Of a stretch of 64,000 bases of DNA, positions 14,701 to 21,944 are shown piece after piece. Made by a program: the position numbers and the translations under genes. The notes below the pieces were generated by a model. That model made no database searches. It was not told the origin of the DNA and was given only the letters and a program-made list of their open reading frames with translations. The stretch is from Podarcis erhardii. Lineage: Eukaryota. The DNA is taken from assembly GCA_964252035.1 (NCBI GenBank), contig OZ176208.1. One strand, 5' to 3'. Position 1 is the first letter of the stretch; each line of letters begins with the position of its first letter.

Positions 14701-15844
14701 AACAGCACAGCAACCATAAATGACAAATTTATGCAGAAAGTAGCTATAAACCTGCAGTATACTTTTTTCAGGTCTCTAACTGTTTTTAATGGTGAAATGG
14801 TGCAGTATAAAATTCCTACCTGACTTTAGTGTAAGTTTTAAAGCATGAAATGTATCATTAATGAGCCATGTGCTAACAGCTGTAAAATATTCCAAGGTGT
14901 GCATTTGAAAATTATTGGTGCTCTTCTGGTGTGATTAATGCATCTAGATATAGCCAGCATTCAAGTATTGCTGCCTGCTAATCTTTCATATGTTGTGATT
15001 TATTGCTATATTTAAGAGAGATGTCTATGATTAAAGTTTTACAAACTCTACATTATGTGGGAAGGAGAGGAGGTAGAAAGTCTTATGTTCATTAGGATGT
15101 ACAATCCAGTGTATATCTGCATCTTCTTAGAGCAAGGATGGCAATGATGGTGCCCTCCTGCTATCTCTGGCCACTGTTCATTCTGGCTGGTGTTGATGGG
15201 ACTTGGAGTTCAATAACACCTGGAGGACAACATGTTGACTATTCTTGAATTAAACACTCCCATAATTTAGGTGGACATAACTTATAATCCACCATAGTTT
15301 ATTCAGTTGGCAAATGGTGCAGTTCCTTAGCAGAAGCTGTGCTTTCTGATAACACTGCATTTTTTTTAAAAAAAATAAAATAAAACCTCTGCTAGTAGCT
15401 ATTACATCCAAAGAATCCATTACTGTAAACAGTATGAAACCATCCAAGAGCCACATGGATAGCTGTGGATCACTGGCAGTTCCTCTCCTCATCTGGTTCA
15501 TTCATGGAATGTCTTTCTCAGATCAGCTGAAGTCATCGACAGGGAAAACAAAACAAAGACACCCACATAGAAGACCCCAAGTACATGTATGGATCTCGTC
15601 TTTTGAGTAATCTGGAGTAGAGTGTATGTATTTGGTGTAATGATAAGTTATTAAGGTGAGCAATACACACATATTCCAGTCATGCAGGGTATTCAACTAG
15701 TTGACCTTCTAACTCTATGGGTCCTTATTTTTGAGAGTCAGTTCTCACAAACTTACTAAATAATTGGGGCAGTAAGTTTCACGTGCTGTTAGCCAAAAGT
15801 GTACAAACAAACAAACAAACAAACAAGAAAGCCATTAGTGATAT

Positions 15845-16089
15845 TATTTCTTCTTTGGCGATCATTCGTAGCTGAGTAAGATTGTCTTCCATAAACATGG
15901 TTTTAACAATGAGTCTGTAAGTGACTGTGGAGGCCAATTCTGGATCCACAGATCCTTCCACAGTGGGGACATTGGTTTCTGGGCAGGAGTTGGTCACGGT
16001 GTGGATTTGCCAAGTGTGCCTTCCTCTTAGCACGTTTCTCCCTTGCGTCTTGAGTTTGAGTGTCTTCAAAGCCCATGACACCTTTGGTA
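15845..16089 (-). mobile_element. RTE-clade LINE 3' fragment (distinct from BovB)
   Basis: Translates to EDTQTQDAREKRAKRK...CPHCGRICGSRIGLHSHLQTH, a typical RTE ORF C-terminus, with a short AAG-type tail. Candidate TSD AGTGATAT (15837-15844 / 16090-16097). Confidence 0.8.
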
Positions 16090-16642
16090 AGTGATATGAA
16101 GCAGTGTACAAAGCACATAGCACAAAGAGCAGAGATGGGGAACTTGTGGGCCAAAGGTGTGAGACTACAACTTCCATGCTCCCAGTGCTCATGCTGGCTG
16201 GAGCTGATGTTGGAGTCCAGCAACAGCTGGAGGGCTGCCGGCTGCCCATACATGCCTTGCAGAGCAGGTTTGAGAAGCTAGGAACAGGTGTAAAGAACTG
16301 AGAATGGACATCCAGGAAAGTAAGCATATAGCATAGAAACAGAAAGTCATGAACCAGCAGTTGGTACAGGCTGCACAAATATTTTACGCTCTTGGTAGCA
16401 CTCAAGATGCATTAATAACCTGGCTTGATGTATCTGTGGCTCCCTCTTCTGGCCAGGAGGTACAAGGAGTGAGGAGTTGACTCCCAAAGTGGTTGTTTTA
16501 TCACTCATGGTGTCTTGCAGGAAGTAATGGAAACAATTTGTTGTTGTTGTTGTTTTAATGGTGCTATATAATTAAACAAGAACAATAACTAACCAATTGG
16601 TTAAAAAATATTGCGCTCATGGAAACATTAGTAGGAAAAGAA

Positions 16643-16700
16643 AACCTTTATGTTGGAAAGGGCATAACCTTTATGTTGGAAAGGGCATAACCTTTATGTT
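16643..16700 (+). repeat. 23-bp tandem repeat (2.5 units) abutting the CR1 5' end
   Basis: AACCTTTATGTTGGAAAGGGCAT twice, followed by AACCTTTATGTT. Confidence 0.9.
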
Positions 16701-17021
16701 ATGGTAGGGCAGCGGCTGAAGAAGGAGCAAAAAGGGTTTTCTCCTGTGTGTGTTTCTTGTGGCTGATTAGCTGCTCTCCCTGTGCAAAGGTCAGAGGGGG
16801 CAGGGTTTCTGTTGAGGTAGGTGATTAGCTGTGGGAGGAGCTTATCAGAGCTTGTAGGGCAGCGGCGCACGCAATTTGATCTATCTTTAGATTTAGGGGA
16901 GCTAGTCTCAAACGTTTGTGGGGGGAGACCTAGGGTTTTTTGGGGGGGAGTTACTTGTCCTGTCTGCACGCTTCTTATGATGGAGGACCACTGTAGCCAG
17001 CCCCAACGACATGTTCTCAAG

Positions 17022-18050
17022 ATGGAGAGTGAGGGAATAGCTGCAGTCGCCTGCGGTTCCTGCACAATGTTTGCCATCTTGCCAAAGGTTGCAGGCAGCT
17101 TTACCTGCAGCAATTGCATGTTGATTGCCCTCTTAAAAGACAAAGTCCAGCAACTGGAGGAACGTGTGGCTACGCTCCAAAGAATTAGAGAGCTGGAGCT
17201 CTTCTTGGAAGCAACAGAGCACACCGTCTCCACCAAGGAGGAGACAGGGGACTCCCCTGAGAAGGAGGCTAGTTCACCAACACAGGAGCCAGATATATGG
17301 AGAAACGTGACTCAAAGAAGTAGGAGGCCCAGGGTTCGCTCTGATTGTTTAGAAATACACAATTGCTTTGAGGTCCTCTCCCCTAGAATGGAAGACGAAG
17401 AGCAGACTCCATTTGAGGATCTCTCCCTCGTTACAGTCGATCAGGTATATGAAGATGAGCAGCAAAGTCAGTCCTCAGGGAATGTGCAGGCGACCTTGGA
17501 ACGGACAGATCACGGAAGAACCCCGACCAAACCGAAGAGGAGGCGTGTAGTGGTGATAGGGGATTCCCTACTGAGGGGAACAGAAGCAGTCATCTGTGGG
17601 CCTGACAAGATGTCTCGGGAAGTGTGCTGTCTCCCTGGGGCTAAGATCCAAGATGTAACTGAACGACTACAAGGAATCATAAAACCCACTGACAAATACC
17701 CCTTCCTCTTGGTTCATGTGGGAACCAATGACACTGCAAGCAATAGCCTCCAGAAGATCAAAAGAGACTATGAGGCTTTGGGCAGGAAATTGAAGCAATT
17801 AAATGCACAAATTGTCATCTCATCTGTCCTCCCAGTTGAACGACGTGGCCCAGGGAGAGAGAGAAAAATAGTGGAAGTGAACAGCTGGCTTCGTAAATGG
17901 TGTAAACAGGAACGGTTTGGATTCTTAGATCACGGACTGCAGTTTCTTGAAGATGGACTTCTGGCAAGCGATGGGCTGCACCTCACAACGGTTGGGAGGA
18001 ATGTTTTTGCCAAAAATCTCAGAAACCTCATAAGGAGGGCTTTAAACTGA
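17022..18050 (+). CDS. CR1 ORF1p: CX2CX14CX2C zinc finger, coiled coil, SGNH/GDSL esterase (342 aa)
   Basis: ATG in AAGATGG context gives [18 protein letters not shown], then a leucine-zipper-like [19 protein letters not shown] blocks GDS, PGA, GTND and DGLH are all present. The track ORF starts at an upstream GTG (16821) that is probably UTR. Confidence 0.92.
18041..18047 (+). promoter_or_regulatory. Candidate -1 programmed ribosomal frameshift slippery heptamer (U UUA AAC)
   Basis: The ORF1 frame reads GCT TTA AAC TGA. The -1 frame reads TTT AAA CTG ACT AAT GTG and is continuous with ORF2. Function is inferred, not shown. Confidence 0.55.
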
Positions 18051-18055
18051 CTAAT

Positions 18056-20977
18056 GTGGGGGAGGAAGACAGTGCTCCTGAAGGTAGGAGTCTATCAATT
18101 GATGAACATGATCATCCAAATGTCATAGACCAAATGGAGCAAACAGCACGCAGACCTAGTGGTGGGAGGAAAAAATCCTTAAATAAGAGACATGGGGGAA
18201 TGATTAATGGACTTCAATGTCTGTACACTAATGCACAAAGCATGGGAAATAAACAAGATGAGCTTGAGCTCTTGGTACAGCAAACTAAATATGACATAAT
18301 AGGCATCACTGAAACCTGGTGGGATAAGTCCCATGACTGGAATGTAATAATGGAGGGTTACAATCTATTTCAGAGAAACAGACCAGACAAGAAAGGAGGA
18401 GGAGTGGCGTTATATGTCAGGGATGTGTATACCTGTGAAGAGATCCAAGATTTAGAACCTCAAAGCCAAAGTGAGAGCATTTGGGACAAAATTAAGGGAG
18501 AGATGAATAACAGGGACCTCATTGTGGGAGTTTACTATAGATCCCCAAGCCAAACGGAGGACATAGATGATGCCTTCCTGGAACAGATGGCCAAGCATGC
18601 AAAAGGAAGGGAGATAGTAGTAATGGGGGACTTCAATTACCCGGATATTTGCTGGATGTCAAACTCAGCCAAGAGCATAAGGTCAAACAGATTCCTCACT
18701 GGCCTTGCAGACAACTTCGTTGTCCAGAAAGTGGGAGAAGCAACAAGAGGAACAGCCATTTTAGATCTAGTCCTAACCAATGTTGATGACCTGGTTAGTG
18801 GGGTAGAAGTGGAAGGATCATTAGGCGCGAGTGATCATGCTCTTCTGAAGTTTACTATACAGCGGAAAGGAGCAGCCAAGCATACTAGGACTCAATTTCT
18901 TGACTTTAAGAAAGCCGACTTCATAAAACTTAGGGAAGTGCTGGGTGAGATCCCATGGACAGTAATACTAAAAGGAAAGGGAGTTCATGATGGCTGGGAG
19001 TTTGTTAAGAGGGAGATAGTAAAAGCACAACTTCAGACAATACCAATGAGACGGAAACATGGAAGGTGCCTAAAGAAGCCAGGGTGGCTATCTAATGAAC
19101 TTTTAACTGAGTTAAGATTAAAAAAGGATGTGTACAAAAAATGGAAAAGGGGGGAAACCACCAAAGAGGAATTCAAACAAATAGCCAGCATGTGTAGACA
19201 CAAAGTCAGAAAAGCTAAAGCACAGAATGAACTCAGGCTTGCTAGAGAGGTTAAAAGCAACAAAAAAGGCTTTTATGGGTATGTTCGTAGCAAAAGGAAG
19301 AACAAAGAAACAGTGGGGTCACTCAGAGGAGCAGATGGTGAAATGCAAACAGGGGACACAGAAAGGGCTGAACTCCTCAATGCCTTCTTTGCCTCAGTCT
19401 TCTCCGATAAAGAAAACAATGCCCGACCTGAAGAATTTGGAGCAAATGATTCAGCAGAGGAAACACAGCCCAGAATAACTAAGGAGATAGTACAAGAATA
19501 CTTGGCTAGTTTAGATGTATTCAAGTCTCCAGGGCCAGATGAACTGCATCCAAGAGTATTAAAAGAACTGGCAGATGTGATCTCAGAACCACTGGCAGTC
19601 ATCTTTGAGAATTCCTGGAGAACAGGCGAAGTCCCGGCAGACTGCAGGAGGGCAAATGTTGTCCCTATTTTCAAAAAGGGGAAAAGAGAGGACCCAAATA
19701 ATTACCGCCCAGTCAGTCTGACATCAATACCAGGGAAGATTCTGGAGCAGATCATTAAGCAAACAGTTTGTGAGCACCTAGAAAGGAATACTGTGATCAC
19801 CAATAGTCAGCATGGATTTCTGAAAAATAAGTCATGTCAGACTAACCTGATCTCGTTTTTTGACAGAATTACAAGCCTGGTAGATGAAGGGAACGCAGTG
19901 GATGTAGCCTACCTTGATTTCAGCAAGGCATTTGACAAGGTGCCCCATGATATTCTTGTAAAGAAGCTGGTAAAATGCGGTCTTGACTATGCTACCACTC
20001 AGTGGATTTGTAACTGGCTGACTGACCGAACCCAAAGGGTGCTCATCAATGGTTCCTCTTCATCCTGGAGAAGAGTGACTAGTGGGATGCCACAGGGTTC
20101 TGTCTTGGGCCCCGTCTTATTCAACATCTTTATCAACAACTTGGATGATGGACTCAAGGGCATCCTGATCAAATTTGCAGATGACACCAAACTGGGAGGG
20201 GTGGCTAACACCCCAGAGGACAGGATCACACTTCAAAACGACCTTGACAGATTAGAGAACTGGGCCAAAACAAACAAGATGAATTTTAATGGGGAGAAAT
20301 GTAAAGTATTGCACTTGGGCAAAAAAAATGAGAGGCACAAATACAAGATGGGTGACACCTGGCTTGAGAGCAGTACATGTGAAAAGGATCTAGGAGTCTT
20401 GGTTGACCACAAACTTGACATGAGCCAACAGTGTGACGCGGCAGCTAAAAAAGCCAATGCAATTCTGGGCTGCATCAATAGGAGTATTGCATCTAGATCA
20501 AGGGAAGTAATAGTGCCACTGTATTCTGCTCTGGTCAGACCTCACCTGGAGTACTGTGTCCAGTTCTGGGCACCACAGTTCAAGAAGGACACTGACAAAC
20601 TGGAACGTGTCCAGAGGAGGGCAACCAAAATGGTCAAAGGCCTGGAAACGATGCCTTATGAAGAACGGCTAAGGGAGCTGGGCATGTTTAGCCTGGAGAA
20701 GAGGAGGTTAAGGGGTGATATGATAGCCATGTTCAAATATATAAAAGGATGTCACATAGAGGAGGGAGAAAGGTTGTTTTCTGCTGCTCCAGAGAAGCGG
20801 ACACGGAGCAATGGTTCCAAACTACAAGAAAAAAGATTCCACCTAAACATTAGGAAGAACTTCCTGACAGTAAGAGCTGTTCGACAGTGGAATTTGCTGC
20901 CAAGGTGTGTGGTGGAGTCTCCTTCTTTGGGGGTCTTTAAGCAGAGGCTTGACAACCATATGTCAGGAGTGCTCTGA
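18056..20977 (+). CDS. CR1 ORF2p: APE endonuclease plus reverse transcriptase
   Basis: APE motifs YTNAQS, ITETWW, VYYRSP, MGDFN and SDH. RT motifs [22 protein letters not shown] and KFADD. Ends [12 protein letters not shown]. The frame is open from 17951, its first ATG is at 18134, and the true start is uncertain. Confidence 0.95.
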
Positions 20978-21944
20978 TGGTGTTTCCTGCTTGGCAGGGG
21001 GTTGGACTCGATGGCCCTTGTGGTCTCTTCCAACTCTATGATTCTATGATTCTATGATTCTAAGTTTGGAAAGTTTTGATTTCAGGTTTGTTTGTTTTTT
21101 AACTTCTATGGCATTCTCTCTCTCCCCCCACCCCCAAAGAAAAAGACCATTACATTTTGACAGAGCTGCAAAATACTTTAATATTTGCAGATGTGCTTTT
21201 CCGAAATGCTGCTGACACTTTTGATGTGGTTGCTTTAATAACGAAAAACAACAGTGCTGGTTGCAAAGCACGAGATGTAACTCTGATGGAGAGTAGAAGA
21301 AAAATGTTTTCATAAAAGAAGCAATCTTAAGGTAACAGCAGTGTCTAAGAACACTGTGACATAGTACATAAATCTTTACAACTCACTTCTTATATCTTAG
21401 GCAGGGAAAGGAAAACCCCATTAAAATCACAACTCTTGCTTAGTATGAAACTCTTCAAAAGGAAAGCTTGACTTTTGAACAGCACAACTATTTGTACCAT
21501 GTACTTCAAAGTTTTAATGTAAATTCTGATTCAGCATTGCATAAATTACTGGCATAAATAGATCAATGTCGGTTGCACGGTGCTTAAAAACAAAAAACAA
21601 AAAAAAGAGTGCTTTCAAAATTTAAAACAGACTCCTTAACCTTGCTTATTCTTTCATACAAAAATAAAATGGGTGATAAACAATGTTCTTGAGTGATTGC
21701 CAATGTGGCAGAAGCTCTGGGACTTCTCCTCCCACCCCCCACAATCCTCTGGAGCAGATGGAGAGGGCATGGGGGGGCTACCCAAGGAGGAAAGGAAAGG
21801 AAGGGGAAGTCCCACAGCATGATCAGAAATCTGCTTGGATTTTGATTTTGTGTTGTAGCCGTCTTCCACGTTTCACGAAACATGCTTCCCTCATAGATCA
21901 ATTGGATGTCACTCATAATTATTATTATTCAGCATTCTCTAAAG

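Follow-up and report, generated by a model that had tools for sequence, protein, structure and literature searches.

A conserved slippery heptamer and a probable −1 frameshift at the ORF1-ORF2 junction of an esterase-type CR1 retrotransposon of Podarcis erhardii

The window, a stretch of 64,000 nucleotides (64 kb) of contig OZ176208.1 from Podarcis erhardii (GCA_964252035.1), contains a single intact CR1 LINE at about 16701 to 21062; all features described here lie on the + strand. The 5′ untranslated region spans 16701..17021 with an approximate 5′ boundary, and joints and loose ends of RNA reads cluster in this region, at 16705 to 16886. The ORF1 frame runs from stop to stop over 16821..18050. 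Its in-frame ATGs include 16977/16980 and 17022, and the close homologues begin at the position equivalent to 17022. From there ORF1 (17022..18050) encodes 342 amino acids with a CX2CX14CX2C finger, a coiled coil and an SGNH esterase (PF13472, E = 7e-10; 4c1b, E = 2.6e-23), whose SGNH/GDSL domain (17541..18035) has its GDS, GTND and DGLH motifs all intact. The ORF2 frame (17951..20977) is the −1 frame relative to ORF1. It encodes an APE-type endonuclease (EN; 18218..18838; PF03372) and a reverse transcriptase (RT) domain (19676..20326; PF00078, E = 4e-34), and it ends at 20977. The EN Asn codon at 18230 to 18232 aligns to residue 14 of the L1 endonuclease, as assigned from the 8sp5 alignment row (profile position 52 to chain position 13). 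The 3′ untranslated region (20978..21062) terminates in ATTCTATG octamer repeats, which we take to be a CR1-type tail.

Judged by its architecture and homologues, the element appears to be a CR1 LINE with an esterase ORF1 (CR1_7, type IVB). An ORF1 with zinc finger, coiled coil and SGNH esterase, an ORF2 with APE endonuclease and RT, the 3′ octamer tail and a dispersed high-copy family are all present. In CR1 subgroup 7, ORF1 of type IVB consists of zinc finger, leucine zipper and esterase (PMC4120745), and this ORF1 architecture together with an EN/RT ORF2 is shared with the window element; the word frameshift does not occur in that survey of 448 elements. The closest named proteins, among the homologues listed, are from Podarcis muralis. 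The family of the window element has 1337 candidates in the genome, 40 of which were scored and found to be 99 to 100% alike; the family is young.

ORF1 ends with GCT TTA AAC TGA. The heptamer TTTAAAC at 18041..18047 thus stands in X XXY YYZ phase (U UUA AAC) and adjoins the stop codon TGA (18048..18050), which occupies the equivalent place in 19 of the 24 junctions compared below; in the ORF2 frame the same letters read TTT AAA CTG. U UUA AAC is the slip heptamer of coronavirus ORF1a/1b. The initial annotation had read this site as a −1 fusion signal, and its coordinates for the heptamer, the phase and the −1 position of ORF2 were all correct. So were its statements that the first ATG in the ORF2 frame lies at 18134 and that the ATG at 18054 is in the ORF1 frame, where it closes at TAG 18126. 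In addition, three further out-of-frame ATGs (18102, 18108 and 18120) lie ahead of 18134, and the ORF2 frame has another ATG at 18200. UAAUG at 18052 to 18056 was considered as a SART1-type signal and rejected; its stop is not in frame with ORF1, nor is its AUG in frame with ORF2. Between the slip site and the endonuclease the −1 frame forms an open linker of 57 codons (18047..18217), with the two in-frame ATGs and, ahead of them, the four out-of-frame ones. The proposed fusion of about 1318 amino acids has this length if ORF1 starts at ATG 17022 (342 amino acids of ORF1 plus 976 of the −1 frame); a start at ATG 16977 gives 1333 amino acids.

The initial annotation had suggested asking whether the heptamer and its phase are kept among relatives beyond what the encoded amino acids require. 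A metagenome scan gave 65 loci, 25 of them with a usable ORF1 end and 22 including the junction. Fourteen junctions were placed by homology leaving out the last four residues, and eight, with nearby indels or longer tails, by eye. The exact heptamer was present in 13 of the 14 homology-placed junctions and in 19 of all 22. Adding the window and one copy of an older CR1 family of the same genome (family B) brought the exact heptamers to 21 of 24; T TTA was present in all 24. Single linkage at 72% sorted the 24 junctions into 13 clusters, each with an exact-heptamer member, and these 13 lineages, which are not fully independent because they share ancestry, are about 50 to 72% identical upstream of the heptamer. 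From background codon frequencies in 11 of these ORF1 tails (third-position T, 386/1572; TTA, 18/165 Leu; AAC, 18/50 Asn), the heptamer is expected by chance at about 0.01 per lineage (0.25 x 0.11 x 0.36). Synonymous sites flanking the heptamer vary freely; TTA and AAC do not. Thus, the heptamer is conserved at the DNA level, exact in 21 of 24 junctions versus about 1% expected per lineage, and its phase is conserved across the relatives as well. Most of the metagenome loci are bird-type, as inferred from similarity, and four (L100, L104, L114 and L115) come from a distant family with 31 to 35% identity to the esterase query.

The protein ends can be followed more widely. Among the 120 ORF1 homologues listed of 377, 81 end in LN, and RALN is very common among the amniote ends, in line with the initial annotation. 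Hosts named among the homologues are lizards, a snake, turtles, birds and poison frogs, and also a ray. The best 150 of 14050 representatives at 50% identity included 78 with a DGxH motif, 69 of which have a tail of 20 to 50 amino acids after it; 48 of these tails end in LN, 5 in GN and 1 in KN (21/69 not LN). The LN ends fall at four tail lengths (26, 27, 32 and 39 amino acids), so that the place of LN is tied to the stop rather than to the fold. The alignment to the solved ZfL2-1 esterase stops short of the terminal LN residues. An amino acid that has no T-ending codon stands ahead of terminal LN in 3 of 133 cases, and ahead of internal Leu in 174 of 935. The next commonest end is QGN (6/150), SKN occurring once; GN is preceded by Q in all 6 cases, and the single KN by S. 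A G GGA AAC heptamer would be translated as GN and an A AAA AAC heptamer as KN, and such heptamers are predicted from the protein for these families. Viral and GTDB scans with both alignments gave no matches, and hence no DNA of the QGN or SKN families.

Of the 19 junctions that reach EN, 13 have an open −1 frame all the way from the slip site; the 6 broken ones are decayed copies, and 5 further contigs end early. The linker varies from 34 to about 95 codons, and many stork ORF2 gene models read FKL followed by about 95 open codons to EN. A conserved ORF2 start codon near the ORF1 stop was not found across the compared lineages. In seven bird-type junctions an in-frame ATG lies at −1 codon 5, 5 nt after the stop; elsewhere it lies at other places. 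An in-frame AUG ahead of the EN Asn is missing from L097, L100 and L104 and from 16 of 24 family-B copies, and 9 of the 11 AUGs in 30 family-B copies sit at two CpG-type positions. The residue equivalent to this Asn is needed in Zorro3, where N17A falls below 5% (PMC1965478). Both the open −1 frame and the lack of an AUG common to the lineages, for which the initial annotation had wanted a comparison, were thus observed. We also looked for an intact natural in-frame ORF1-ORF2 fusion and saw none among 13 longer matches, which is a weak test.

A bare heptamer slips poorly. The stems that had been drawn downstream of the site by hand can pair, but none of 5 segments folds better than its shuffles (z = −0.19 to +0.69). 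Local minimum free energies at the junctions gave z = −1.74 to +1.24 over 19 rows (L067 excluded), RNAalifold on 11 junctions gave 0 consensus pairs and no covariation, and a search for simple H-type pseudoknots, as the initial annotation had recommended, remained at shuffle level overall, only 2 rows (L083 and L079) beating all 20 shuffles, with differing geometries. Thus, a coronavirus-like structural stimulator was not borne out, and the hairpin or pseudoknot 5 to 9 nt downstream of the heptamer that marks canonical −1 frameshifting was not found at these junctions. What we did find, and what is new relative to the initial annotation, is a run GGGGG at 18058..18062, 10 nt past the heptamer (+11 to +15). 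It is exact in 19 of 22 junctions, and its three central G are present in all 22. The Gly codon within it is always GGG (22/22, versus 64/169 of background Gly codons), and the run extends into flanking codons that encode differing amino acids. The run is a candidate, and likely, linear stimulator. A distant pairing partner was also sought for it in the window and in 6 loci that lack the 3′ end, and the best duplex did not exceed those of shuffled sequences. Since no partner was found, the run is probably bound by a protein where the mRNA enters the ribosome.

Within the P. erhardii genome the heptamer was intact in 69 of 69 loci of the window family (L032, which has no junction, was excluded) and in 49 of the 49 EN-selected loci, of 56, that span the junction; these copies partly overlap the 69. 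ATG 18134 was retained in 68, ATG 18200 in 67 and the out-of-frame ATG 18054 in 64 of the 69, but such retention is no sign of selection because the copies are too young and too little diverged. Own-genome searches with distant queries returned mainly this young family. The site recurs in two older CR1 families of the same genome, B and C. A pattern search with a TAA or TAG stop gave 33 matches versus 1 in the reversed control, most of them family B. In 30 family-B copies collected by linker and EN DNA, with the heptamer kept out of the query, the heptamer was intact in 15 of the 24 that span the junction, and the remainder were mostly one change away. Selection on it after insertion was considered and rejected, since 15 of 24 is about what neutral decay predicts at about 10% divergence; the count shows that the master element already had the site, and no more than that. 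Two copies of family C were recovered with an EN query taken from a different family, both with heptamer and TGA; in the sole readable copy, L227, EN is in the −1 frame and the G run follows the heptamer after 7 nt instead of 10 nt.

The layout of heptamer, stop and G run in 13 lineages makes it likely that EN and RT are made by a −1 slip. Of the features of canonical −1 programmed frameshifting, the heptamer in zero-frame phase, a conserved open −1 frame leading into a domain, and retention of the heptamer beyond amino acid need were all found. The fusion reading of the initial annotation thus passes the comparative tests, and its structural stimulator is not supported. We consider it probable, on comparative sequence evidence, that a programmed −1 frameshift at U UUA AAC yields an ORF1-ORF2 fusion of about 1318 amino acids beside abundant ORF1p. 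Most ribosomes would stop at UGA 18048 and release ORF1p. In a minority, both tRNAs would slip one base back (from UUA/AAC to UUU/AAA), probably stimulated by the GGGGG run 10 nt downstream, and these ribosomes would read through the open linker into EN and RT, giving the fusion at a low ratio to ORF1p.

Counted against a frameshift were the in-frame ATGs 18134 and 18200 upstream of EN in the window family, the ATG 5 nt after the stop in the seven bird-type junctions, the lack of a conserved hairpin or pseudoknot, the 7-nt spacing in L227, the 21 of 69 tails without LN, and the fact that G GGA AAC and A AAA AAC come from protein only. Several of these points would suit termination at UGA 18048 followed by a restart of ORF2 at an AUG or a near-cognate codon (GTG 18056, ATG 18134 or ATG 18200), with heptamer, stop and G5 acting as a signal for termination or 40S retention and ORF2p made as a separate protein. 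Start codons are at hand in the window family and at −1 codon 5 in seven junctions, no structural stimulator was found, and L1 ORF2 has been described as using AUG-independent initiation (PMC5009743, PMC1965478). However, no start codon is common to the lineages, four out-of-frame ATGs precede 18134, and a restart leaves unexplained both why the letters ahead of the stop match X XXY YYZ exactly, in phase with ORF2, and why the linker is open from the heptamer onward. We regard reinitiation as unlikely.

The heptamer might also be incidental, if a C-terminal Leu-Asn were conserved in the protein and its codons simply inherited; common ancestry of the lineages and the frequency of RALN in amniotes would fit. 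Against this stand TTA and AAC staying fixed next to varying synonymous sites, LN at four tail lengths beyond the part matched to the ZfL2-1 esterase, and a G run that is always GGG for Gly and spills into flanking codons, and it is therefore very improbable. Just as improbable is a correction in the RNA, with splicing, editing or polymerase slippage bringing ORF2 into frame at the junction; no evidence in its favour was seen. In four raw RNA runs of a related species (6 to 12% of each; all 30 bins covered; about 40 to 50 reads deep at the junction), no joint or indel was listed at 18030 to 18140, among the best-supported rows at a threshold of 4 in 100. These reads, which may stem from passively transcribed copies, argue against splicing or RNA slippage and say nothing on translation.

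The predicted −1 frameshift resembles the gag-pol arrangement of retroviruses and LTR retrotransposons, which share a structural or RNP ORF that closes with an X XXY YYZ heptamer, the enzymes in the −1 frame and a fusion that would be made at a low ratio. Unlike gag-pol and coronaviruses, CR1 is an APE-type LINE without a protease and without a hairpin or pseudoknot at 5 to 9 nt, with G5 at 10 nt instead. With mammalian L1 and silkworm SART1 it has in common a bicistronic LINE RNA and a low ORF2 output. Translation of SART1 ORF2 has been explained by reinitiation, giving a separate protein. In L1, too, ORF2 has been explained by reinitiation giving separate proteins (PMC5009743, PMC1965478), its initiation being ascribed to a mechanism described as unknown (PMC5009743), which also covers the −1 heptamer sites of gag-pol. 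In the Dictyostelium elements TRE5-A and TRE3-A, likewise APE-type non-LTR elements, a −1 frameshift is stated to be necessary for ORF2 (PMC5911963), but they belong to another clade and host, and the passage concerned gives neither slip site nor experiment; for Paramecium LINEs a +1 shift or readthrough has been suggested (PMC5405496). The closest likeness in the stimulator is the −2/−1 frameshift of PRRSV nsp2, which has no obvious downstream structure and uses a C-rich motif at a 10-nt spacer that works at 9 to 11 nt (PMC4937337). The CR1 junctions likewise have a short, linear, homopolymer-rich motif without structure at 10 nt (19/22; L227, at 7 nt, is the exception), but the PRRSV motif is C-rich and bound by PCBP and nsp1beta, whereas that of CR1 is G-rich and a candidate protein site. 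A report of a CR1 frameshift was not found in the open-access full-text literature, including passages of PMC5408684, PMC6609765 and PMC11835228; in the text searched, PMC3905857 does not mention a frameshift and PMC5009743 does not mention CR1. Haas, Kajikawa and Repbase were outside this scope and may mention one.

How ORF2 of LINEs is translated is a long-open question that is usually answered from L1, by reinitiation. It is conceivable, albeit doubtful, that esterase-type CR1s as a whole, which include the dominant LINEs of birds and reptiles and relatives in frogs and cartilaginous fish, make an uncleaved fusion by an ancient −1 frameshift whose stimulator is a protein-bound G5 (bound by ORF1p or a host G-run binder), as a mirror image of the C-rich signal of PRRSV, and whose slip site has been swapped between lineages among U UUA AAC, G GGA AAC and A AAA AAC. 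If the frameshift is real, a very widespread LINE group would have a second, retrovirus-like solution for ORF2, and a structure-free G-run stimulator would join the few known protein-stimulated frameshifts. It would also explain why CR1 ORF2 annotations begin at erratic methionines or past the catalytic Asn. CR1 ORF2p would then be a fusion with the multimerizing, membrane-binding domains of ORF1, which would offer a route to cis-preference and a fixed stoichiometry.

A third, old CR1 family of the Podarcis erhardii genome carries the heptamer TTTAAAC together with TGA (L226:1077 and L227:1285); in L227, the one readable copy, a G run lies 7 nt downstream of the heptamer. Family B (G000, loci L136-L195) is likewise an older CR1 family, with 509 candidates and copies that are approximately 85 to 93% alike, and no in-frame ATG before the endonuclease that was common to its copies (L136-L195) was found. 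In the window, TAATG at 18052-18056 is similar to the stop-start signal of SART1, but a signal of this type was rejected, since both codons lie outside the useful frames.

The 5' end of the CR1 element is flanked by a 17-nt direct repeat (window 16661-16700), whose copies lie at 16661-16677 and 16684-16700. RNA reads jumped back by 146 to 150 nt at window 16705-16855 in all four RNA runs of a related species, which suggests that other CR1 copies have a 5' UTR built of tandem monomers. Just upstream of the CR1 element, frames with a CPHCGRICGSRIGLHSH-type motif at their end were seen at 15779-16411 on the minus strand; this stretch resembles a LINE of the RTE/BovB type in its 3' portion.

Among the ORF1 homologues, P0039, labelled as an SGNH hydrolase of Klebsiella pneumoniae, shares 60% identity with the CR1 ORF1 of the window and ends in RALN; it is probably vertebrate DNA inside a bacterial assembly. 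Distant esterase ORF1s have a QGN or SKN C terminus (P0330, P0331, P0338, P0365, P0367, and P0360), and for these, alternative slip sites are predicted.
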